The position numbers and the translations under genes are program-made. A stretch of 64,000 bases of DNA from Vicinamibacterales bacterium (GTDB lineage Bacteria > Acidobacteriota > Vicinamibacteria > Vicinamibacterales > UBA2999), in NCBI GenBank assembly GCA_046331325.1, contig JAXLRB010000020.1, forward strand, positions 4,075-68,074, read 5' to 3'. Below, piece after piece: positions 16,260 to 51,776 of this stretch. Each line of letters starts with the position of its first letter. The first letter of the stretch is position 1. The notes beneath the pieces are model-generated. The model saw nothing but the letters and a program-made list of their open reading frames with translations. It was not told where the DNA came from and did no database searches.

Positions 16260-17408
16260 ATGATCTCCGACCCCACCGCGCTCATGGCGTTCCTGTTCGG
16301 GCTCATCGCCGCGTCGCGGTGGCTCGAGCGCGTGGTCCCCGCCGTGCAGCGGATCAGCTCGGCGGTGGTCTGCACGCTCGCGGGCATCGTGCTCGCCAAC
16401 GTCGGGGTGATTCCCCACGCCTCGCCGGTCTTCGACGCCGTCAACACCTACGCGGTGCCGTACGCCATCGTGCTCGTGATCCTCGGCTCCGACATCCGCG
16501 ACCTCGGCACGGCCGGACGCGCCATGCTCCTTGCGTTCGCGGCGGCCACGGTGGGCAGCTTCGCCGGCGCGCTCATCGCCGGGGTGCTCTTCGAGACGCG
16601 GCTGGGCGCCGACACCTGGAAACTGGCCGGCCAGTTCGCCGGGTCGTTCGTGGGCGGCGGCATGAACTTCGTGGCGGTCGGACGTGGCCTGGCGACCGAG
16701 CCGTCGTTGTTCGCGGCCGCCTCGGTCGTCAACAACCTCTCCACGGTGCCATGGATGCTGGCGCAGATGGCGCTGTTCGGCGTGCTCGCCCCCTACTATC
16801 GCGCCGACACCAGCGCCGGCGATGCCGAGGAGGCGGAGCGGCAGAGCGCGCGGATTCGCGATCAGTGGTCGCACGCCGATCTGTCGATCACGGCCATGGC
16901 GGTGCTGGCGGCCCTGCCGCTGGCCATCATGTGGGTGTCGGGGCTCCTGGCGCCCCTGCTGCCCGGGTTTCCCCTGGTGCTGTGGCAGACCACGCTGGCC
17001 CTGGTCGTCGCGCAGGTTCCAGCGGTGCGCCGCGTGCCGGGAGCGACGGTGCTGTCCTACTTCGCCCTGCACCTGTTCTTCGTCGTCATCGGCACGTCGT
17101 CGATCATCTCGGAACTCGCGTCGTCGTGGTTCCCGCTGCTGGCCTTCATGCTCACGATCATCGCCATCCACGCGGTGATCGCCTACGGCGTCGGCTGGCT
17201 CGCCGGCGTCGACCTGGCCACGGTCACGGTGGCCAGCCAGGCGGCCGTGGGCGGACCGGGATCGGCCCTGGCGCTGGCGATGTCGATGAAATGGCCGGCG
17301 CAGGTGACGCCCGGCATCATCGTCGGCATCTTCGGCTACGCCATCGGCAACTACATCGGCTTCAGCTGCGCCTGGGCCACGCGGGCCCTCATGGGAGGGG
17401 GAGGATGA
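16260..17408 (+). CDS. DUF819-like polytopic membrane protein
   Basis: 382-aa hydrophobic protein (FAGSFVGGGMNFVAVG, AAVGGPGSALALA). Family assignment is from memory. Confidence 0.65.
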   Translation: MISDPTALMAFLFGLIAASRWLERVVPAVQRISSAVVCTLAGIVLANVGVIPHASPVFDAVNTYAVPYAIVLVILGSDIRDLGTAGRAMLLAFAAATVGSFAGALIAGVLFETRLGADTWKLAGQFAGSFVGGGMNFVAVGRGLATEPSLFAAASVVNNLSTVPWMLAQMALFGVLAPYYRADTSAGDAEEAERQSARIRDQWSHADLSITAMAVLAALPLAIMWVSGLLAPLLPGFPLVLWQTTLALVVAQVPAVRRVPGATVLSYFALHLFFVVIGTSSIISELASSWFPLLAFMLTIIAIHAVIAYGVGWLAGVDLATVTVASQAAVGGPGSALALAMSMKWPAQVTPGIIVGIFGYAIGNYIGFSCAWATRALMGGGG

Positions 17409-43491: not shown

Positions 43492-45651
43492 TCACCACCA
43501 GCCGAGCACGGAATGGCCGAGGCTCCATCGCGGCCCACGCACCGCCTGCGCGCGTCCGCGCACCCAGTAGTCGTCGGCGCTGGCGAACTGACCAGCGCCA
43601 CGCGCCACTTCGATCCACGCGTTCACCGCGTCGCGCAGGGTGTCGGCGCCACGCGGCAATCCGTAGGCGGCCACGGTGCGGTAGGTCGAGTCGTCGGGCA
43701 CCACCGCGGCCAGGGCTGGCTGCATGCGGCTGGCGAAGGCCGCCTGCGCGAGCGGCAGCACCATCGCGTCCACGCCGTCGAGGCGTCCGGACGTCAGTAC
43801 CGCTGTGAGCGATGCCTCGACGACGGTGGCGCGCGGTAACAGCCGGCGCACCGGCGGGGCCAGCCGTTCAGAGGGCGTGCCGAGCGTGAGTGGCGCGGCC
43901 TGCAGGCCCGCCAGGCCGGTGAACTGCGTCCGACGATAGTCGGGCACCAGGAAGGCCAGCGGTTCTTCGTGATACGGCGTCGAGAACGCGATCGTCGTCG
44001 ACGACGCCACGGTGACGACGAGGCCCGCCATGACGATGTCGCACACGCCGCGATCGAGCATCTCCGGCAGGCGGTCGCGATCGACGACGACGAACTCCGC
44101 CCGCACGCCCAGGGCCCGGGCCAGCGCGTGTCCCATCTCCACGTCGAACCCCACGAGCGCGCCGGCCGCGTTCGTGAAGGAGAAGGGCACGCCGTCCGCG
44201 AAGACGCCGATGCGCAGCGCCCCCCGCGCCTGCAGGCGGGTGAGGCGGTCGGCCGGCGACAGCGTCTCGGCCGCCGGGTCGTGTGGCACGACCACCGCGG
44301 CCGGCTGTCCGTTGCGCAGCGTGAAGCCGTCGAGGGCGGCGAGGCCGGTCGGCGCCGGAGGGATGATCACCGCGAGCACCCCCCGCGTGCCGGCGACGAG
44401 CAGCGCCACCACGCACAGCGCCGTGACGCCCGCGCGCAACAAGACGCGCGGCCGCAGGCGGAACACACCTCCGGCCATCGCCGCCAGCACCAGCGACAGC
44501 GCCGCCGTGTGCGCCACCGCGACGAGCGCATTGAAGCGGGCGTTCACCACGCCCGACACGTTGAACAACGGGAAGAGGTCTGCCGGAAGGTGCAGCTGGT
44601 CGAGCAGGAAGATCACGCCGGCGTTGATGCTGCCGAACACGCTCGGCACGCCGGCCGCCGCCAGCGTCATCCACTGCCGCGGCGCGAGCTCGCTGCCCAC
44701 GTACCAGGCCGCGAACGGGAAGAAGGCCAGGCTCAGCACCTTGCCGGCATCGGGAAAGTTGTAGAGCAGCGGCACCGCCACCGCCGCCGTGCCGTCGACG
44801 ACCGGCGGCGCCACGCCGCGTTCCCGCAGCACCGTGCGGTTCGCGGCCGTGATCATCGGCAGCACGACGAAGTAGTCGCCGGCGGCGAACGCGGTGAGGA
44901 GCGCCGTGCGCAACTGACGGACGAACGCCGCGCGCTCCACCGGCGTGACGATGGCCACGAGCGAGGGCAGCAGCCACAATGCCACGACGAGCGACGAGCC
45001 GATGTAGACGACGAACCACGCCTGCATGCGCACGAGCTCGTCGGCGCGCAGCGTGCCGGCAGCTACGCCTGCCATGGCGAAGAGACCCAGCGGCGTGAAG
45101 CGCACGATGGCGCTGCTCACCCGGCTCATCGCGTCGTTGAAGGCCACGAGCACGGCGAGCAGGGGCGCCTTCGAGGCATCGGCCATACCGCTGATGGCGA
45201 CGCCGACGAGCAGACTGAACACCACCACTGCCGGCATGAAGTTGTTGGCCAGCGCCTTGAACACGTTCGCCGGGATGTAGACATCGAGCCAGTCGCCCGA
45301 GACTGGCGGGGCGGCGTCGGCGGCGACGAGCACGCCGCCAGTGGATGCCGGGTAGGCGAAGGCGGAGGCGCCCACCCACGCCAGCATCAGCCCCCACACC
45401 ACCGCCAGCAACACGCCGCCGCGCCGCGCCAGCACCGCGGCCTCACCGGCGCTGCTCGCGCCGATGCCGACGATGATCGACCCCACCACGTACGGCAGCA
45501 CGGTGACCTGCAGCAGCTTGACGAAGACGGTGCCGACCAGGTCCAGCGGCGCGATCGCCTCGCCGAAGAACAGGCCGGCGGCCACCCCGGCCGACAGGCC
45601 GACGAGCACACGCCTGAAGAAGGGATCGCTACCGCGAGGGGGCGCTGTCAC
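43492..45651 (-). CDS. dicarboxylate/amino acid:cation symporter (DAACS/GltP-like) fused to a C-terminal family-3 solute-binding domain
   Basis: GTG 45651. The N-terminal roughly 400 aa are polytopic with DAACS-like segments (KLLQVTVLPYVVGSIIVGI, FTPLGLFAMAGVAAG). An extra TM follows (AGVTALCVVALLVAGTRGVLAVI), then roughly 270 aa that are PBPb-like (GALRIGVFADGVPFSFTNAAGALVGFDVEMGHALARALGV, CDIVMAGL). Confidence 0.75.
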   Translation of the reverse strand: MTAPPRGSDPFFRRVLVGLSAGVAAGLFFGEAIAPLDLVGTVFVKLLQVTVLPYVVGSIIVGIGASSAGEAAVLARRGGVLLAVVWGLMLAWVGASAFAYPASTGGVLVAADAAPPVSGDWLDVYIPANVFKALANNFMPAVVVFSLLVGVAISGMADASKAPLLAVLVAFNDAMSRVSSAIVRFTPLGLFAMAGVAAGTLRADELVRMQAWFVVYIGSSLVVALWLLPSLVAIVTPVERAAFVRQLRTALLTAFAAGDYFVVLPMITAANRTVLRERGVAPPVVDGTAAVAVPLLYNFPDAGKVLSLAFFPFAAWYVGSELAPRQWMTLAAAGVPSVFGSINAGVIFLLDQLHLPADLFPLFNVSGVVNARFNALVAVAHTAALSLVLAAMAGGVFRLRPRVLLRAGVTALCVVALLVAGTRGVLAVIIPPAPTGLAALDGFTLRNGQPAAVVVPHDPAAETLSPADRLTRLQARGALRIGVFADGVPFSFTNAAGALVGFDVEMGHALARALGVRAEFVVVDRDRLPEMLDRGVCDIVMAGLVVTVASSTTIAFSTPYHEEPLAFLVPDYRRTQFTGLAGLQAAPLTLGTPSERLAPPVRRLLPRATVVEASLTAVLTSGRLDGVDAMVLPLAQAAFASRMQPALAAVVPDDSTYRTVAAYGLPRGADTLRDAVNAWIEVARGAGQFASADDYWVRGRAQAVRGPRWSLGHSVLGWW

Positions 45652-45696: not shown

Positions 45697-45950
45697 CCGA
45701 TCGCGGCGGACCTGAAGACCTGACGCGCCGCCAGTTCAGCGACGCTGAAACCCACAACCGGGGTGGATTCGTGCCTGCTCGCGAGCCGTGTGCAGGCGGT
45801 CGCGGCGCGCCTGAAGACCTGATGAGCCGCCAGTTCAGCGAAGGAGTAACGTGGCAGACCGGGTGGGATTCGTGCCCGCTCGCGAGCGCCGCAGGCGGTC
45901 GCGGCGCGCCTGAAGACCTGGCGAGCCGCCAGTTCAGCGACGCTGAACTG
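45697..45950. repeat. 99-bp tandem repeat, about 2.6 copies, abutting the tRNA-like gene
   Basis: Copies at 45697-45795, 45796-45894 and 45895-45950 (partial), about 80% identical. Each carries CCTGAAGACCTG, GCCGCCAGTTCAGCG and, in the two full copies, GG(G)TGGGATTCGTGCC(C/T)GCTCGCGAGC. Confidence 0.8.
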
Positions 45951-45954
45951 GCGG
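45926..45954 (-). terminator. 12-bp perfect hairpin formed by the tRNA-like 3' end and its trailer
   Basis: CCGCCAGTTCAG-CGACG-CTGAACTGGCGG. One arm (45949-45954) is the terminal CCGCCA of the tRNA-like gene. No U-tract, so it may be a processing or terminator structure. Confidence 0.3.
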
Positions 45955-46045
45955 TGAGGCAGGGATTCGAACCCCGGGGTAGGGGTTTAAGCCCACAACG
46001 GCTTGGGGCAAACTGCCGTTCGTAGCCTCCGCTGGCCACCTCACC
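45949..46045 (-). tRNA. type-II (Ser-like) tRNA-like gene with a noncanonical anticodon region; anticodon not assignable
   Basis: 97 nt: GGTGAGGTGGCCAGCGGAGGCTACGAACGGCAGTTTGCCCCAAGCCGTTGTGGGCTTAAACCCCTACCCCGGGGTTCGAATCCCTGCCTCACCGCCA. Perfect 7-bp acceptor stem, G73, encoded CCA, T-arm CGGGG/TTCGAAT/CCCTG, and a Ser-like 5' start GGTGAGGTGGCC. Where the anticodon arm should be there is a 6-bp stem (AACGGC/GCCGTT) closing a 12-nt loop. Confidence 0.5.
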
Positions 46046-46202
46046 GCATCGAAATTCCCGGCGATCTTGATAGCACCTCGAGGAACGGCTGGGCCGGTTC
46101 AGCGCCGGCCGGGCTCAAGCCTCTGGCCTGACCGGTTCGAACAGCCCCAGACAGTATACAGCCCTGCAACGCCGATGCCGCTGCACTGCCAGGGCGGCGC
46201 CC

Positions 46203-46717
46203 TTAGCTCACGGCAGAAACCTGCTGACGATAGCCGCCGCTCGCCGAAGCGTACCAGCGCGTAGCTGTACCTGACGCGGTCAGCGTGTAGTTGATGACTG
46301 TCCGGTAGCGGATGCCCAACGGCCTGGACACGTCGGAGTCGACCAGCACGGTCTCGGCACTAACGGGGCGAGTAGGGTCGCACGAGGGTCTCAAGCTGCA
46401 CGCCCAGGTCCTGATGCACGTAGGTGTGATACACCTGGCCGTCGGGGCTGTAGATGGTCGTCTCGGCACGCTGAATGGTCAGGCGGTTGCCGGAGAGGTC
46501 ACCGATCCCACGGTGGGAGACAATGCGCTCAGCGCGTAGGTGTAGCCAGACCTGCGCGTTCTGGAAGATGCTCGCCGACGCGGAATCCTGTCCGCGCATC
46601 GACGATGGTGAGCCGGCTCGTGGCCTGAGCGCTCGGGCCAGGGCAGGCCGGCCCAGCCCCTCCGCCGCACGAGAGCGCGAGCAGACACAGCAAGGATGCG
46701 ACGATTCGGCGAGTCAC
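46203..46717 (-). pseudogene. small lipoprotein, hypothetical, split over three frames as sequenced
   Basis: GTG 46717: MTRRIVASLLCLLALSCGGG (lipobox) ...SRLTIVDA. Then the +1 frame gives RGQDSASASIFQNAQVWLHLRAERIVSHRGIGDLSGNRLTIQRAETTIYSPDGQVYHTYVHQDLGVQLETLV (ORF 46360..46599). A further +1 frame gives ETVLVDSDVSRPLGIRYRTVINYTLTASGTATRWYASASGGYRQQVSAVS-stop (46203). The second junction coincides with the GGGG run at 46365-46368. Local GC is visibly lower than the flanks. Confidence 0.5.
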
Positions 46718-46791
46718 GATCTGGCGGTGCTGGCGTAGGAGCGCGGTTGCCAGTCGGGCATATCGTCGGCGCGCTCCTGCCGCGACGCGCG

Positions 46792-47913
46792 CTACGCCGG
46801 CAACGACGCCAGTGTCCGCTGCGCCTGCGGCACGCGCTCCGCGATCGACGGCATGGCTTCGCGCGCGTCATAGCCGCCGGCGCGAAGCGCTCGAGGGCAT
46901 AGCTCGATCGTGTGGCCGAAGCCGGTCGCGGTGTTGGCGAGGGTGCCGATGGCGTCGTCGCGCTCGGCCGCGCGTTCTTCCACGCCAAGCCCTCGACGAA
47001 GGCCTGGTTGCGCCACCGGAATGCTCGGCAGCGCCGGCCAGTCAATCGCCTCGCCCAGGTAGGCCAGCGATTCCCACAGCGGCGCGCGCAGCAGGTCGTC
47101 GGTCAGCGCGCGAGCCTGCTCGTGCATCCACGGCACCGGATCGGGCCGCAGGAGCGACGCGTCTGAATCGAGGATGCCGGCCAGCGGGAAGAAGCGCAGG
47201 TCGCAACTGATGCGCGTGGGCTGCGGGCCGGGTTCGACGGCGGCCGGATGCGCGGCGCCGCTGCCGTGCAGCACGAGGAAGTTGAAGATCACCACCTCGC
47301 CGAGCTTCGGCTGGTATTCCACCACCGGACCCACGCGCTCGATGCCGTCGCACTGGTCGTGCCGCGGCAGCCAACGGTTCGCGAGCATGCCGAGGCGATG
47401 CGTGCCCGGATAGAAGTACAGCGCCTTGCCGTCAAACGTGTTCAGCGGCACCCAGCACACGACGGCGCTGGGCGAGGTGAGCACGCGCGCGGCGGTGAAC
47501 TCGTTGTGGATGCCGTAGAGCGACTGCACCTCGCGGCCGTCGCCGTGGTAGCCGTGCAGGATCACGTCCTGCTGCGAGCGCACCTTGAGCTGGTAGTGGA
47601 ACGTCTGGCTGGTGTGGACGATGGGCCCGATCAGCCGCTGCAGCAGGCCGCCGAACACGGCGTGGCTGGCGTCGCGCAGCTCCGGCGTCATGTAGCCGCG
47701 CGCCAGCTTCGCGCGCACGTCGGCGCCGATCTCCACACCGCCGTCGTGTCCCGCGGCGCGGATCTGATCCACAGGCAGACCGCTCTGCTCCGACAGCATG
47801 CGGGTGAGGATGTCGAGCGGACCGTGGTCCACATCGGTCAGCACGACGACGCCGTCACGCTGGAAGCCGGCGACGATCGCATCGAGGTTGTCGGAGCTGA
47901 GCGGGTAGTACAT
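46792..47913 (-). CDS. Fe(II)/2-oxoglutarate dioxygenase-like protein (PhyH-like)
   Basis: ATG 47913 within ORF 46792..47973. Candidate HxD...H facial triad (GYHGDG ... FLVLHGSG) and an Arg in ISCDLRFFP. The assignment is tentative. Confidence 0.5.
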   Translation of the reverse strand: MYYPLSSDNLDAIVAGFQRDGVVVLTDVDHGPLDILTRMLSEQSGLPVDQIRAAGHDGGVEIGADVRAKLARGYMTPELRDASHAVFGGLLQRLIGPIVHTSQTFHYQLKVRSQQDVILHGYHGDGREVQSLYGIHNEFTAARVLTSPSAVVCWVPLNTFDGKALYFYPGTHRLGMLANRWLPRHDQCDGIERVGPVVEYQPKLGEVVIFNFLVLHGSGAAHPAAVEPGPQPTRISCDLRFFPLAGILDSDASLLRPDPVPWMHEQARALTDDLLRAPLWESLAYLGEAIDWPALPSIPVAQPGLRRGLGVEERAAERDDAIGTLANTATGFGHTIELCPRALRAGGYDAREAMPSIAERVPQAQRTLASLPA

Positions 47914-48010: not shown

Positions 48011-50431
48011 TCACCGCGTCGACAGCCCCATCGTCTCGAGCACTGCCGCGAATCTTGGCTCGTTGCGCAGCGGGTCCATCATCGGATCCAGGCGCGCCCG
48101 CGGCAGGAAGATGTCGTGGTCGGCCAGCGAGCGCTCCAGTTCATCGAGCGCCCTGGCGGTATCGCCCAGTGCGGCGTAGATGCAGGCGAACCAGTAGGTG
48201 CGCACGTAGCGCGTACGTTCCACCGCCCTCAGCCGCTCGACGTACTCCAGTGCCTCCACGCGTTTCCCCTGCGTCGCCATCGCCAGCGCCGCCACGAACA
48301 GCATCTCCGGATGCTCGGGCGCCTGCGCCAGTCCCTCCGACACGATCGCCACGGCGTCGGCGTGGTGCCCGTTCGCGACGTGCGCCAGGCCGGCCCAGTG
48401 ACGCGCGATCAGGAAGCGCGGGTCGAGCGCCATCGCCGTGCGCGCCTGCTCGAGCGCCTTCACATCCTGACGTGCATAGAGGTAACCGGTCACGAGCACG
48501 GAGTTGTTGATGAGCGACAACGGCTCGAGCGCCACGGCTTTGGTCAGTTCGTCCACCATGTCCTGCCCACGCCCCTGCGCCGACAGGTAGCTCGTGGCGT
48601 AGGCCAGGTGCGTGTACGACACGTTGGGATTGAGCGCCATCGCCTGCCGGAACTCGCGCTCGGCCGCCACCCAGTTCCAGTCGTAGATGGCCAGCGAGTC
48701 GCCGAGCGCGGCGTGCGCCTCGGCGAGGTCGGGATCGAGCTCGAGTGCCTTCGTCGCCGCGGCCTTCGCCGGGGGGATCGACTCGCGCGGCGACACGTCG
48801 GGGTCCTTGCCCATCGAGTTGTAGCAATCGGCGATCGCCGCGTAGGCCAGCGCGTAGCTCGGGTCCACCGCGATGGCGCGCTGGTAGAGCTCGATGGCTT
48901 TGAGGATCTCGTCCTTCGTGCGCTTCGCCCAGTGGAAGCGGCCCTGCAGGTACAGCTGGTAGGCCTCGTTACTGGCCGTGTACGACTTGGCCAGCGTCTG
49001 CTCAGCCTGCCCCGAGAGCTTCAGCTGCAGCCGGCGAGAGATCTCGGTGGCCATCTCGCGCTGCACGCCGAGCAGATCGGCCATCCGCCGTTCATACTGC
49101 TCGCCCCACAGCGTCTTCTTCTGCGCCACGTCCACCAGCTCGACGCTGATGAGCAGCGTGTCGCCGCGCTGGGTGATGCGCCCGGTCATCACGGCGCGCA
49201 CGCCGAGCTCCGCGGCGATCGCCACCGGATCGACGTCCTTCCCCTTGTAGCGGAACACCGAGCTGGCCGGACTGACGCGCACGGCGGCGATCTGCGACAG
49301 ACGATAGATCAGCGACTCGGCGAGGCCGTCCGCGAGGTACTCGGAGTCGGCGCTGCTGCCGCGGTTCTGGAATGGCAACACCGCGAGCGAATCCACCGGG
49401 TCGTCGACTGGCGCGCGCCACGCTCGCCCATACATTGCGCCGGCTACGGCGAGGATCACGAGCGCCGCGACGAGCCACCAGCGCCGACGCGGCGCCGCGG
49501 CCTCGTCGAGCCGGGGCGGCGCAGGTGCGTCGCCGGGCGGCGCGATGGCTGGCGACACGTCACGAGCGGCGTCGAGCAGCACGTTCGTCTGCACGCGCTG
49601 CAACTCGGCCACCAGCTCAGCGGCCGACTGGTAGCGCGCCTCGGGCGGCTTCGCGATCAGCCGCGTCACGATGCGGGCGAGATCGGGCGCGATCGCGGGG
49701 CCGAGGGGCGGCGGATCGTGGTCGACGATCGCGACAATCACGTGATTGATCGTCGCGCCGGTGAACGGCTGACGGCCGGTCAGCATCTCGTAGATCACCA
49801 CGCCGAGGCTGAAGAGATCGGTGCGGGCATCCACGGCGCGGCCGCTCGCCTGCTCGGGCGACATGTAGGCGGCCGTGCCCACGACCATGCCGGCCTGGGT
49901 GTGCGCGACCGTCTGCGTGGCGTCGGCGTCGGCGGCCGGCTCGCCCCCCACGAGCTTGGCGAGCCCGAAATCCAGCACCTTCAGGATGCCGTCGCGCCGC
50001 AGCATCAGGTTCTCGGGCTTGATGTCGCGATGGACGATGCCGGCGTCGTGAGCCGCCGCCAGCGCTCGCGCGGCCGCGACCGCAACGTCGAGCACGTCGC
50101 CGGTAGGCAGCGGACCGCGGTCGAGGCGGGCGCGCAGCGTCTCGCCATCCACGAACTCAGTGGCCAGGAAGTGGGTGTCGCCGACGGCGCCGAACTCGTG
50201 GATGGTGAGGATGCCCGGATGGTTCAGGGCCGAAGCCGACAGTGCTTCCTGCTCGAAGCGTCGCCGACGATCCTGATCGCGCGCCACGTCGTCGGGCAGC
50301 ACCTTGAGCGCCACCTTGCGATGCAGGGTGACGTCTTCGGCGAGATAGACCTCGCCCATGCCGCCGGCCCCGAGCTTCCTGACGACGCGGTAGTGCGAGA
50401 ACGTGCTGTCAGGGGCGAGACGCGGGTGCAT
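48011..50431 (-). CDS. membrane Ser/Thr protein kinase with periplasmic TolB-N-like and TPR repeat region
   Basis: ATG 50431. Hanks kinase motifs GAGGMGEVY, VALK, HRDIKPEN, DFGLA and SPEQ. One TM (WWLVAALVILAVAGAMY). The C-terminal half has repeated TPR-like A/Y/L patterns. Confidence 0.9.
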   Translation of the reverse strand: MHPRLAPDSTFSHYRVVRKLGAGGMGEVYLAEDVTLHRKVALKVLPDDVARDQDRRRRFEQEALSASALNHPGILTIHEFGAVGDTHFLATEFVDGETLRARLDRGPLPTGDVLDVAVAAARALAAAHDAGIVHRDIKPENLMLRRDGILKVLDFGLAKLVGGEPAADADATQTVAHTQAGMVVGTAAYMSPEQASGRAVDARTDLFSLGVVIYEMLTGRQPFTGATINHVIVAIVDHDPPPLGPAIAPDLARIVTRLIAKPPEARYQSAAELVAELQRVQTNVLLDAARDVSPAIAPPGDAPAPPRLDEAAAPRRRWWLVAALVILAVAGAMYGRAWRAPVDDPVDSLAVLPFQNRGSSADSEYLADGLAESLIYRLSQIAAVRVSPASSVFRYKGKDVDPVAIAAELGVRAVMTGRITQRGDTLLISVELVDVAQKKTLWGEQYERRMADLLGVQREMATEISRRLQLKLSGQAEQTLAKSYTASNEAYQLYLQGRFHWAKRTKDEILKAIELYQRAIAVDPSYALAYAAIADCYNSMGKDPDVSPRESIPPAKAAATKALELDPDLAEAHAALGDSLAIYDWNWVAAEREFRQAMALNPNVSYTHLAYATSYLSAQGRGQDMVDELTKAVALEPLSLINNSVLVTGYLYARQDVKALEQARTAMALDPRFLIARHWAGLAHVANGHHADAVAIVSEGLAQAPEHPEMLFVAALAMATQGKRVEALEYVERLRAVERTRYVRTYWFACIYAALGDTARALDELERSLADHDIFLPRARLDPMMDPLRNEPRFAAVLETMGLSTR

Positions 50432-50489
50432 CGGGGGCGAGGGCCGGGCTATCGTCGCACACCCGGCCCACACTTCCCACGGCCGGCGC

Positions 50490-50693
50490 CTACTTCCGCG
50501 GCACGATCGGCGGATCCGTCTTCTTCGCGATCTCGCGGGAACGCCGCTCGGTGTAGGCCAGCGGGCTCTCGCCCGCCTTCGGCCCGGAGGCCGCGTCGTC
50601 GGGCTCGGCGCCGGCGGGCGTCTGGCGCTGGGAGATGCGGCGGCGCAGCGCGTCGGCGCGGGCCTTCGAATCGCGTGTGTCGTCGCCGCTCAT
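50490..50693 (-). CDS. 67-aa charged hypothetical protein
   Basis: ATG 50693 preceded by GAGGAGG, 17 nt after the upstream stop. Composition is charged and disordered (MSGDDTRDSKARADALRRRISQRQ...). Coding status is supported mainly by the strong RBS and its position in the operon. Confidence 0.5.
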   Translation of the reverse strand: MSGDDTRDSKARADALRRRISQRQTPAGAEPDDAASGPKAGESPLAYTERRSREIAKKTDPPIVPRK

Positions 50694-50710
50694 CCCCGCC
50701 TCCTCATCCG

Positions 50711-51634
50711 TCAGCGTCGCCGACGCAGGGCCGCGGTGGCTTTCACGCGCGCCGTCGCCGCCGTCTTCACCGCCGCCAGCCGCTCGCGAATGGCCTTCGC
50801 GCGCGCCTCGCTCGACTCTTGCGTGGTGTCGCCAGCCGAGGTCACGCCACGCATGCGCAGACTGCGCGGTGTCAGCTTCATCACCGCCTTGGGCGGCCGG
50901 GTGACGGCGTCGATCGCGCTGCGTACCGACATCTTCCCGAGCAGGCTACCGAACACGGTCTCGTTGTTCAAGTCGACGACGTGCGGCACCTTGGTCGAGA
51001 CGTCGTCCTTGAACATGCGCAGCTGCATCCAGTGCCGCGTGACCGGGTCGTACCAGCTGATATAGCCGCCCTTCAGCACGGTGCGTGGGGCCTTGATGGC
51101 GCCGGTGAAGCTGTAGCGCACGCCGGGCGCGGCCACGGGGTCGAAGAAGTCGGGGGTGTAGAAGTCGGACACGCGGACGCCGTTCACCTGGTAGCCGAAC
51201 TCCTCCGACTCGCTGGGATCGGCCACTTCCACCAGGTAGTTCACGCGCCGTTTCGGCAGGCCGACGTCGATGGCCTGCTGCAGCAGGTTGCCGGCGCGCA
51301 TGCGGCGGCCGAACGGATCGGCCAGCATCTCCACCACTTCGTGGCTCGCCGTCACCGACCAGCCGGGCCCGAACTCGACCACCGCGAATGGCTGTCCGTT
51401 CTCGTCGTCGTGGAAGCCGGCGGCGTCCTCCACGTTGCGCTGCACGATCACCGGCCAGTAGTCGGTGGGCACGTCCTCGAGGCTGGCGAAGGCGTCGACC
51501 GTGGCCGCCACTTTCCAGATCGGCCCGAAGTCGCGCGAGGCCTGCTTCGAAAGCGCCGCGGCCACTTTGGTGAGCTCACGCGATTTCAGCTCCGCCACAT
51601 CCGACACCAATGCCACGTTCACGCTCAGACCCAT
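50711..51634 (-). CDS. 307-aa hypothetical protein (no family recognised)
   Basis: ATG 51634 preceded by AAGGAGG. Normal globular composition for 240 aa (SHEVVEMLADPFG, YLVEVADPSESEEFGYQVNG, GGYISWYDPVTRHWMQL), then a basic, low-complexity tail. Confidence 0.6.
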   Translation of the reverse strand: MGLSVNVALVSDVAELKSRELTKVAAALSKQASRDFGPIWKVAATVDAFASLEDVPTDYWPVIVQRNVEDAAGFHDDENGQPFAVVEFGPGWSVTASHEVVEMLADPFGRRMRAGNLLQQAIDVGLPKRRVNYLVEVADPSESEEFGYQVNGVRVSDFYTPDFFDPVAAPGVRYSFTGAIKAPRTVLKGGYISWYDPVTRHWMQLRMFKDDVSTKVPHVVDLNNETVFGSLLGKMSVRSAIDAVTRPPKAVMKLTPRSLRMRGVTSAGDTTQESSEARAKAIRERLAAVKTAATARVKATAALRRRR

Positions 51635-51776
51635 GTGCGCCTCCTTGCCGTTCCGTCAATGCGGCCTGCCCGCGCGATTCAACAGCCTACGAGGGTTTGG
51701 ACGGCCCGATGGCCGGGTTTCAGGCGGGCCAGTCAGATCTCGTGCAACGGCGGCCAGCGGCGTTCGCCGCGCGGTG

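Follow-up and report, generated by a model that had tools for sequence, protein, structure and literature searches.

A tRNA-Ser(GCU)-derived element with an out-of-register 6-bp helix in a Vicinamibacterales MAG: a probable non-decoding relic

What becomes of a serine tRNA gene that keeps the outer half of the molecule and carries a 6-bp helix with a 12-nt loop at the position of its anticodon arm? The question is raised by a 97-nt tRNA-like sequence on the minus strand (45949-46045) of the window, the 64-kb stretch of Vicinamibacterales DNA analysed here, whose coordinates are used throughout. The acceptor stem, G73-CCA, T-arm, extra arm and AACGGC/GCCGTT helix that the first-pass annotation had listed were all recovered on the minus strand where it had placed them. 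The features needed for the argument, some of which draw on the related contig L162 and on a chimeric gene described further on, are the following.

45949-46045, minus strand: whole tRNA-Ser(GCU)-derived element, recognised by a Ser-specific covariance model (R1), nhmmer and sequence alignments
46034-46045, minus strand: intact 5' end, with the acceptor strand GGTGAGG, U8 G9 and the D-stem 5' strand GCC; 12 of 12 positions as in E. coli serV and the L162 5' half
46018-46033, minus strand: damaged D-loop and former 3' strand of the D-stem (AGCGGAGGCTACGAAC), with a 2-nt insertion, 5 of 11 conserved columns kept and GGC changed to AAC
45997-46020, minus strand: out-of-register 6-bp helix AACGGC/GCCGTT with the 12-nt loop AGTTTGCCCCAA, read from the sequence, present in all folds and aligned to GGCGGCGGTTTGCTAA of Azospirillum and L162
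45979-45996, minus strand: long variable (extra) arm GTGGG-CTTAAACC-CCTAC, aligned with the V-arm of Azospirillum tRNA-Ser(GCU) and present as V-arm in the ARAGORN call of the chimera
45949-45976, minus strand: intact T-arm, acceptor 3' strand, G73 and CCA, with all conserved columns kept and one base different from E. coli serV
45926-45954, minus strand: 13-bp hairpin in which the last acceptor C, G73 and CCA are paired with the trailer (CCGCCAGTTCAGC / GCTGAACTGGCGG), from folding and inverted repeats I2 and I15
45701-45947, minus strand: 99-nt tandem repeat in 2.5 copies, from just past the CCA up to the transporter gene (TRF score 329, 82% matches; family D1)
46046-46791, minus strand: 746-nt spacer from the PhyH gene to the element, with a weak, frame-shifting coding signal and no homolog detected

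The similarity of the element to tRNA-Ser is far above chance. R1, which was trained on 10 genuine tRNA-Ser genes, matched the window at exactly 45949-46045 (minus), end to end over model positions 1-91, with 46.8 bits and E = 2.3e-10; non-Ser tRNAs score in this range too (39-65 bits), whereas genuine tRNA-Ser genes reach 76.5-99.8 bits. A search by nhmmer with Azospirillum tRNA-Ser(GCU) covered positions 6-97 of the element (E = 2.9e-5), and alignment with bacterial tRNA-Ser(GCU) genes extended over its full length. Furthermore, BLAST matches of the 3' part (45949-45976) landed on annotated tRNA-Ser genes, and plasmid and phage searches returned ordinary tRNA-Ser genes only.

ARAGORN at default settings reported no tRNA in the whole 64-kb window, and Rfam at gathering thresholds gave no match for the element; neither run produced a normal cloverleaf, in keeping with the earlier claim that a 7-nt anticodon loop is missing. 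In pseudogene mode, ARAGORN described a 97-nt 'tRNA-?' with an 8-nt loop and the 'anticodon' UGCC, and outside that mode it reported the element solely with an invented 7-nt intron; an intron-containing tRNA was rejected. In addition, Rfam family RF04351, which by a reading of its consensus appears to be the antisense of the plastid trnS 3' half, matched the opposite strand of the element with 28.7 bits.

Preservation and damage are unevenly distributed along the element. The acceptor stem (GGTGAGG/CCTCACC) is a perfect 7 bp and is followed by U8 and G9; G73 and the encoded CCA occupy 45952-45949; and the T-arm, CGGGG-TTCGAAT-CCCTG, has a 5-bp stem and keeps 12 of 12 conserved columns, a conserved column being one that is the same in at least nine of ten real tRNA-Ser genes. 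The extra-arm stem comprises 5 bp, one G.U pair among them. Across the acceptor stem, positions 8-9, the T-arm and 73-CCA, 22 of 22 conserved columns are kept, as against 5 of 11 in the D-arm (Fisher p = 4e-4). The element agrees with E. coli serV at 39 of 40 positions of the acceptor and T-arm, and U8 G9, the G10-C11-C12 strand, G73-CCA, the long variable arm and a recognisable anticodon-loop remnant, UUUGC..AA, are shared, whereas the 2-nt insertions in D-loop and anticodon loop, the change of GGC to AAC, the 3-nt helix slip and the 12-nt loop set the element apart. What we take, from established knowledge, to be the identity elements of E. coli SerRS (G73, G1-C72, G2-C71, C11-G24 and the long extra arm) are complete in the element.

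The damage is confined to positions 13-43; outside them, the 12 nt at the 5' end and the 54 nt at the 3' end read as normal tRNA-Ser(GCU). By sequence alignment, the D-loop and the anticodon loop within this interval each carry an insertion of 2 nt, and about nine substitutions are present, of which five are G-to-A; the numbers for indels and for the D-arm columns depend on that alignment, and a structure-aware alignment to the covariance model differs, with a D-loop 5 nt short and 9 additional nt in the anticodon arm. The D region measures 19 nt against 17 in the ten real tRNA-Ser genes, so that it is longer than usual, as had been proposed, but by 2 nt rather than about 5. The canonical D-arm GCC-GAGNGGNNNAA-GGC has no counterpart in the element, whose D-stem consists of 3 bp and an A.A mismatch and whose D-loop is without the 20a/20b-type residues that all ten real genes possess.

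In the adjoining arm, the anticodon loop UUGCUAA has become UUGCCCCAA, 9 nt in the ancestral register, and no 5-bp stem closing a 7-nt anticodon loop with U33 exists in the element in any register. The loop of this region comprises 12 nt in the stable register and 8-9 nt in registers that need A.A, G.A or A.C mismatches, against a competing perfect 6-bp helix. The 12-nt loop retains TTTGC from the GCU anticodon loop, and within the window no complementary site that might pair with it was found beyond the element's own opposite strand. The anticodon arm had been described as replaced; the 6-bp stem and the 12-nt loop are indeed present, but the arm is the ancestral one, altered rather than exchanged. 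Every drawable helix of the element is fully paired, and the 7/5, 8/4 and 9/3 cloverleaf drawings are all possible, about 3 kcal/mol apart, at 5-8 kcal/mol above the MFE fold.

A related Vicinamibacterales contig, L162 (k127_7539991, ERZ22666005), allowed the boundaries of the damage to be delimited. It holds a canonical tRNA-Ser(GCU) 5' half (GGTGAGGTGGCCGAGAGGCTTAAGGCGGCGGTTTGCTAA) 7 kb from PhyH, which remains canonical as far as the anticodon loop and then passes into unrelated sequence, its own 3' half missing; a group I intron at this point was tested and rejected, and the half-gene may not be the positional ortholog of the element. A chimera of the L162 5' half and the 3' 54 nt of the element is called as tRNA-Ser(GCU) by ARAGORN at defaults, which places all the damage within positions 13-43.

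The element is probably a decaying, non-decoding relic copy of tRNA-Ser(GCU) whose decoding half has been lost: its tRNA homology is clear, its decoding features are gone and conservation in the relatives examined is absent. A decaying tRNA-Ser was among the options named by the first-pass annotation, and it is the one favoured by the full-length tRNA-Ser(GCU) alignment, the restriction of defects to positions 13-43 and the non-conserved gap in which the element lies. Mechanistically, the ancestral GGC-G-GCGGU has a 3-nt period, which would make re-pairing of the helix 3 nt out of register possible; small insertions and mostly G-to-A changes would have disrupted the D-stem and widened the anticodon loop, after which the former GGCGGCGG tract would have paired anew with a shift of 3 nt, and substitutions would have turned the slipped pairing into the perfect helix AACGGC/GCCGUU, with 12 nt left unpaired. 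An RNA of this kind could not present an anticodon at the right geometry and thus almost certainly does not decode. Most likely it represents a redundant paralog in decay, its redundancy being an assumption in an analysis that covered 64 kb of an 86-kb MAG contig. If transcribed, the intact acceptor/T-arm half could still undergo RNase P cleavage, for which no function is required.

A noncanonical decoder would be either an allo-tRNA of the 8/4 or 9/3 type or a tRNA with an expanded loop, such as a reader of four- or five-base codons. In its favour, the top Rfam family for the element is tRNA-Sec (RF01852), whose model gives it an acceptor stem of 9 bp and an anticodon stem of 6 bp; the 8-nt loop and UGCC of ARAGORN's pseudogene mode and the 9-nt loop of the ancestral register also point this way, and the host is an acidobacterium, from the phylum in which allo-tRNAs and irregular tRNAs were reported (Mukai et al. 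2017; PMC5389517). The tRNA-Sec score, however, is only 21.5 bits, short of the gathering score of 47, and 12 nt are placed in the loop of the anticodon arm; registers with loops of 8 or 9 nt are mismatched and compete with the perfect helix; the top half is canonical 7/5 tRNA-Ser(GCU) sequence; and the allo-tRNAs described have, as far as the text consulted shows (PMC5389517), 7-nt anticodon loops. The 9/3 fold proposed earlier can be drawn through U8-G65 and G9-U64 pairing, but the same U8-G65 and G9-N64 pairing occurs in E. coli serV and in an ordinary actinobacterial tRNA-Ser(CGA), so that the drawing is not diagnostic and membership of the allo-tRNA class is unsupported. No register offers a normal anticodon stem-loop, and we regard decoding of either type as very unlikely, with next to no chance of being correct.

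Compared by description, the element resembles allo-tRNAs in its long V-arm, G73, 6-bp helix at the anticodon position, weak match to the tRNA-Sec model and short D-loop drawable as a GCGG tetraloop, but differs in that its 9/3 pairing is unspecific, a 7-nt anticodon loop is absent and its homology is to canonical tRNA-Ser(GCU); the allo-tRNA design, in which a D-arm of tRNA-Sec type (long stem, tetraloop) goes with a 6-bp anticodon stem and a normal loop on it, was not found in the element. Bacterial tRNA-Sec shares the long extra arm and the 6-bp helix, yet the identity was rejected, the score being below the gathering threshold and the loop containing no UCA anticodon; sel genes were likewise absent among the annotated neighbours. 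With top-half mimics, such as the tRNA-like domain of tmRNA and acceptor/T-arm minihelices, the element has in common that only the acceptor/T-arm half is intact, but it has no G3-U70 pair, tag reading frame or conservation, and tmRNA was rejected because ARAGORN was negative even at a lowered threshold and Rfam gave no match. The recommended check for tmRNA and tRNA-Sec by ARAGORN and Rfam thus reached neither identity. Inactive irregular tRNAs of Acidobacteria, for example the allo-tRNA-UAU pseudogene of Edaphobacter C40, are tRNA-derived RNAs of the same phylum (Mukai et al. 2017; PMC5389517) that share Ser-type identity elements, a disrupted core and a probable lack of a role in translation with the element; unlike the C40-type pseudogene, the element derives from canonical 7/5 tRNA-Ser(GCU) and not from an 8/4 or 9/3 lineage, and no transposon or toxin-antitoxin gene adjoins it.

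The genomic setting bears on whether the element is conserved. It lies inside a lineage-specific, non-coding gap of 1.1 kb at a synteny breakpoint, synteny with relatives stopping at the PhyH stop codon on one side and at the transporter start on the other, and in relatives synteny is preserved around neither of the two flanking genes; the gap was presumably made by rearrangement. The comparison of orthologous loci that had been recommended was carried out, and ARAGORN and/or R1 found no tRNA or related element beside the orthologous PhyH or SDF genes at 15 relative loci. Exact-pattern scans gave 16 chance matches, mostly ordinary tRNAs, in genome contigs (D-arm and T-loop; the source genome itself was not matched), one chance match in metagenome contigs (12-nt loop and T-loop) and nothing relevant in viral sequences; these scans demanded exact patterns, and the absence of homologs from them is therefore weak evidence. 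Within the spacer, a 79-aa ORF is annotated merely as a hypothetical protein, and its matches, the source ORF aside, are weak and partial (34-36% identity over about 30 residues in proteins of 1,100-2,700 aa). The ORF fragments occupy three different frames, and a frameshifted lipoprotein pseudogene was rejected, the reconstructed protein having no homolog.

Downstream, the trailer hairpin (-30.9 kcal/mol, z = -5.6) was matched in stability by none of 200 shuffles, and no U-tract follows it. Variation among the tandem repeats is without compensating changes. Pairwise alignment lent no support to these 99-nt repeats being degenerate copies of the element, its scores being no better than those of shuffles. 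Only repeat unit 1 (45852-45935) gave a marginal 12.5 bits with R1, which makes it a possible lead.

RNase P, the CCA-adding enzyme and several synthetases all make use of the acceptor/T-arm half of a tRNA, and SerRS does not read the anticodon. The uneven damage, with an undrifted top half and intact helices, may point to selection on the top half instead of neutral decay, or just as well to recent damage or to one or two clustered events. A functional, non-decoding tRNA-like RNA kept for its acceptor/T-arm half is an unlikely candidate; it would be either a seryl carrier or decoy charged by SerRS, or a signal for RNase P processing or for stabilisation within a transcript that reads through into the amino-acid transporter gene, which lies 300 nt downstream on the same strand and encodes an SDF-family protein fused to an amino-acid-binding SBP_bac_3 domain. 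The intact conserved columns of the top half, the complete SerRS identity set, the nature of the downstream gene and the fully paired helices, including substitutions that perfect the slipped helix instead of breaking it, would fit such retention. Against it, conservation is absent, an 89%-identical transporter ortholog having an upstream gap of 83 nt without the element; neither an aa-tRNA-dependent transferase nor a second SerRS occurs among the ORFs screened (about 19.6 kb to the window end); a promoter-like site for the element was not found; and the energetic cost of the cloverleaf drawings and the lack of the 20a/20b-type residues also count against it. The more specific proposal of a retained, anticodon-less tRNA-Ser mimic, charged or bound by SerRS through its conserved acceptor/T-arm half, G73 and long extra arm and acting as seryl carrier, SerRS/serine sensor or processing signal of the transporter mRNA, in which the slipped helix and 12-nt loop would bar the RNA from the ribosome, is improbable.

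How the middle of the gene came to be rebuilt is a separate matter, and one origin compatible with a relic is imprecise integration or excision at the anticodon loop, where integrases classically cross over in tRNA genes. Such a site-specific recombination scar would account for damage that stops at the anticodon loop, with a perfect 3' half from position 44 on, for the switch of the L162 tRNA to unrelated sequence at the same loop and for the synteny breakpoint on both sides of the locus. The first 12 nt are intact too, however, and the D-arm is damaged at positions well 5' of where crossover usually takes place; moreover, no integrase, transposase, phage or toxin-antitoxin gene was detected among the ORFs screened (about 19.6 kb to the window end), and the tRNA 3' end occurs just once in the 64-kb window. 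We consider this origin rather unlikely, and for a regulatory RNA or an att element no positive evidence emerged.

A sequencing or assembly artefact, in which local errors or a strain-chimeric join garbled a normal tRNA-Ser(GCU), has to be considered for a MAG contig of 86,398 bp (from the GenBank assembly with proteins MFN7979139.1 to MFN7979141.1, locus-tag prefix U0P30), all the more as the PhyH gene, 0.8 kb away, has small indels relative to two relatives and the spacer ORF pieces sit in three frames. The PhyH indels, however, are compensated pairs (-2/+2, +1/-1) and in-frame +3 insertions, the product of selection and not of random error; the large flanking genes are intact and accepted by GenBank annotation; and about nine substitutions with two 2-nt insertions are unlike a homopolymer-error pattern, which makes an artefact decidedly improbable.

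Standard detectors skip the element or call it a pseudogene only, and an annotation of this Vicinamibacterales MAG should list it neither among the serine isoacceptors nor among allo-tRNAs. It would exemplify a tRNA gene disabled though every helix looks intact, the 3-nt-periodic GGCGGCGG tract having apparently allowed the helix of the anticodon arm to shift into the D-stem strand. Should selection act on the top half, the element would be a natural, chargeable tRNA mimic that is unable to decode, and as such of interest to tRNA biology and genetic-code engineering.

The 97-nt element on the minus strand, read from 46045 to 45949 as GGTGAGGTGGCCAGCGGAGGCTACGAACGGCAGTTTGCCCCAAGCCGTTGTGGGCTTAAACCCCTACCCCGGGGTTCGAATCCCTGCCTCACCGCCA, certainly derives from tRNA-Ser. 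The parts described in the first-pass annotation are all present, namely a 7-bp acceptor stem, U8 and G9, G73 with CCA, a T-arm with a TTCGAAT loop, a 5-bp extra arm, and an AACGGC/GCCGTT helix closed by a 12-nt loop. Whichever alignment is used, no register allows a 7-nt loop on a 5-bp stem. Service as a decoder is hardly credible, and an assembly artefact is very unlikely. In its minimum-free-energy fold the element forms no cloverleaf (z = -1.97); at -42.6 kcal/mol this fold compares with -35.9, -37.2 and -34.3 kcal/mol for cloverleaves with 7/5, 8/4 and 9/3 acceptor-stem/T-stem base pairs.

Descent was traced by several routes. BLAST against plasmids and phages matched the element solely on tRNA-Ser genes, the longest match being an Azospirillum tRNA-Ser(GCU), to which nhmmer also aligned positions 6-97 (E = 2.9e-5). 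Ten genuine tRNA-Ser genes, drawn from three phyla and including six for GCU, were aligned with the element, a column kept in at least nine of ten being termed conserved. The element agreed at all 22 conserved columns of the acceptor stem, positions 8-9, T-arm and 73-CCA, compared with only 5/11 in the D-arm (Fisher p = 4e-4), while 2-nt insertions in the D-loop and anticodon loop were unique to it. In addition, the top half (acceptor stem and T-arm part) is identical to that of E. coli serV at 39/40 positions. This half is wholly undamaged and each drawable helix is perfect, a pattern also to be expected were an acceptor/T-arm function under selection, which we regard as unlikely. When the same ten genes were used to train a covariance model (R1), its hit spanned 45949-46045(-) precisely, from one end to the other, with a score of 46.8 bits (E = 2.3e-10), against 76.5-99.8 bits for tRNA-Ser genes (among them three that had not gone into the model, two from phages and one from Salmonella) and 39-65 bits for non-Ser tRNAs; the element is thus Ser-derived, with about half of the Ser-specific signal gone.

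The first-pass annotation had called for ARAGORN and Rfam checks, and at standard thresholds neither found a normal cloverleaf: ARAGORN called no tRNA or tmRNA across the 64-kb window, and Rfam gave zero matches at gathering thresholds. Run locally, ARAGORN recovered the element only in pseudogene mode, as a 'tRNA-?' of 97 nt whose 8-nt loop is closed by A.A and G.A; it invented a 7-nt intron when introns were allowed. At relaxed thresholds the top same-strand Rfam family was tRNA-Sec, in whose match 12 nt occupy the place of the expected 7; a tRNA-Sec identity was rejected at 21.5 bits against the 47 required, as was a tmRNA identity on the negative ARAGORN search. On the opposite strand RF04351 matched at 28.7 bits; its consensus, which we take to be the reverse complement of a trnS 3' half, fits tRNA-Ser descent.

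The damage was located with the aid of a related Vicinamibacterales contig, L162, collinear with the window between 57960 and the stop codon of the PhyH-family gene. At 7 kb beyond that codon, in the same orientation, it carries GGTGAGGTGGCCGAGAGGCTTAAGGCGGCGGTTTGCTAA:

16260-16300, plus strand of contig k127_7539991 (ERZ22666005): tRNA-Ser(GCU) 5' half, its tRNA character ending just past the anticodon loop

This half is canonical as far as the anticodon loop, after which unrelated sequence continues for about 220 nt to the contig end; no group I intron signal was found there, and the switch may reflect an insertion, truncation or break in the assembly. The first 12 nt of the element are identical to it, and the following 27 positions agree at 18/27, the element carrying two 2-nt insertions; GGC in the D-stem 3' strand of L162 is replaced by AAC, the anticodon stem shows one G-to-A change, and the loop UUGCUAA becomes UUGCCCCAA. 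Because a 93-nt chimera of the L162 5' half and the element's last 54 nt is called tRNA-Ser(GCU) by default ARAGORN, the defects all lie within positions 13-43. As the one supporting observation, the complementary half-tRNA also hints at a possible part for anticodon-loop recombination in the element's origin.

Comparison of the sequences suggests how the odd arm may have arisen. With its 3-nt period, the ancestral tract GGC-G-GCGG would already have been able to pair with ACCGUU when displaced by one repeat; for the Azospirillum gene, this slipped pairing would be G.U, G.U, C-G, G-C, G-C and C/A. Two G-to-A changes and an opposite-strand A-to-G change would have made it perfect, and one more G-to-A change would have left an A/C mismatch in the old register. 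On this view, the 6-bp stem and 12-nt loop would be the old arm re-paired 3 nt upstream, consuming the former D-stem strand. Under structure-aware covariance-model alignment, the D-loop is instead short by 5 nt and the anticodon arm holds 9 additional nt, so the indel count varies with the alignment.

On its source contig, 86,398 bp of a GenBank MAG annotated as Vicinamibacterales (Acidobacteriota), the element occupies a 1.14-kb gap flanked by two same-strand genes.

Features of the gap and the wider window
43492-45651, minus: SDF-SBP_bac_3 transporter gene (MFN7979139.1), flanking the gap
45701-45947, minus: 99-nt tandem repeat, 2.5 copies, 82% matches, from just past CCA to the transporter gene
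45926-45954, minus: 13-bp perfect hairpin (z = -5.6), in which the last acceptor C, G73 and CCA pair with the trailer; possibly a terminator or processing site, with no U-tract following
46203-46717, minus: three overlapping ORF pieces, each in its own frame; the first bears a lipoprotein-like signal (LALSCGG)
46792-47913, minus: PhyH-family dioxygenase gene (MFN7979141.1), flanking the gap
48011-51655, minus: Ser/Thr kinase-TPR gene and 314-aa ORF lacking a Pfam match, between CotH and PhyH
17273-17360, both strands: long stable hairpin inside a coding region (-49 kcal/mol, z = -2.3), with weak mir-598 matches on both strands; probably a merely palindromic stretch

Synteny breaks at both edges of the gap. 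A transporter ortholog of 89% identity has an upstream gap of 83 nt and an adjoining lactamase-fold gene, the downstream neighbour of PhyH orthologs changes in nearly every relative, and none of 15 relative loci has a tRNA or related element adjoining these genes (ARAGORN and/or R1). The 746 nt upstream of the element have weak, frame-shifting coding signal and no homolog was found for them, nor for the three ORF pieces joined, the middle of which (79 aa) is GenBank hypothetical protein MFN7979140.1. A search for a sigma-70-like promoter found none, and the window holds no further copy of the tRNA 3' end. With GCCA at its end, a GGG-CACGAAT-CCC hairpin and an end-to-end score of 12.5 bits against the tRNA-Ser model, repeat unit 1 (45852-45935) suggests that the units may be badly eroded tRNA-like copies; their direct comparison with the element was not significant.

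Among the neighbouring genes, the transporter fuses SDF (sodium:dicarboxylate symporter) and periplasmic amino-acid-binding SBP_bac_3 domains, an architecture common to more than 200 homologs, the few named ones being MAGs of soil phyla (Acidobacteriota, Vicinamibacteria, Gemmatimonas, Eisenbacteria). Compared with two relatives, the PhyH-family gene shows in its final ~60 codons (46792-47020, minus) two compensated frameshift pairs (-2/+2 and +1/-1) and two in-frame +3 insertions, leaving the C-terminal peptide partly in another frame and the stop codon unchanged. Moreover, 48011-51655 looks like a lineage-specific insertion, since CotH adjoins PhyH in each of three related contigs (L023, L162 and L163).

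The U8-G65 and G9-U64 pairing, on which a likeness to the 8/4 or 9/3 allo-tRNAs was proposed, is not diagnostic, as E. coli serV and an ordinary actinobacterial tRNA-Ser(CGA) can pair likewise. The three cloverleaf drawings are not separable by energy, and the sequence is that of a canonical tRNA-Ser; the allo-tRNA reading is not supported. In published descriptions, allo-tRNAs combine a D-arm like that of tRNA-Sec with a 6-bp anticodon stem, and their anticodons are varied but normal (PMC5389517; PMC7609411). Irregular tRNA polycistrons and allo-tRNA pseudogenes that are disrupted and inactive have been reported from Acidobacteria (PMC5389517). Like these, the element is irregular, Ser-type and probably untranslated, but its parent is another tRNA and it is free of mobile-element or toxin-antitoxin neighbours. 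From position ~19.6 kb to the window end, the screened ORFs specify ordinary proteins of metabolism, transport and signalling, and the screen found no domain of an integrase, transposase, toxin-antitoxin system, SerRS or aa-tRNA-dependent transferase. On balance, we favour the view that the element is a putatively redundant tRNA-Ser(GCU) copy that has probably lost its decoding half and persists as a relic in a rearranged non-coding gap.
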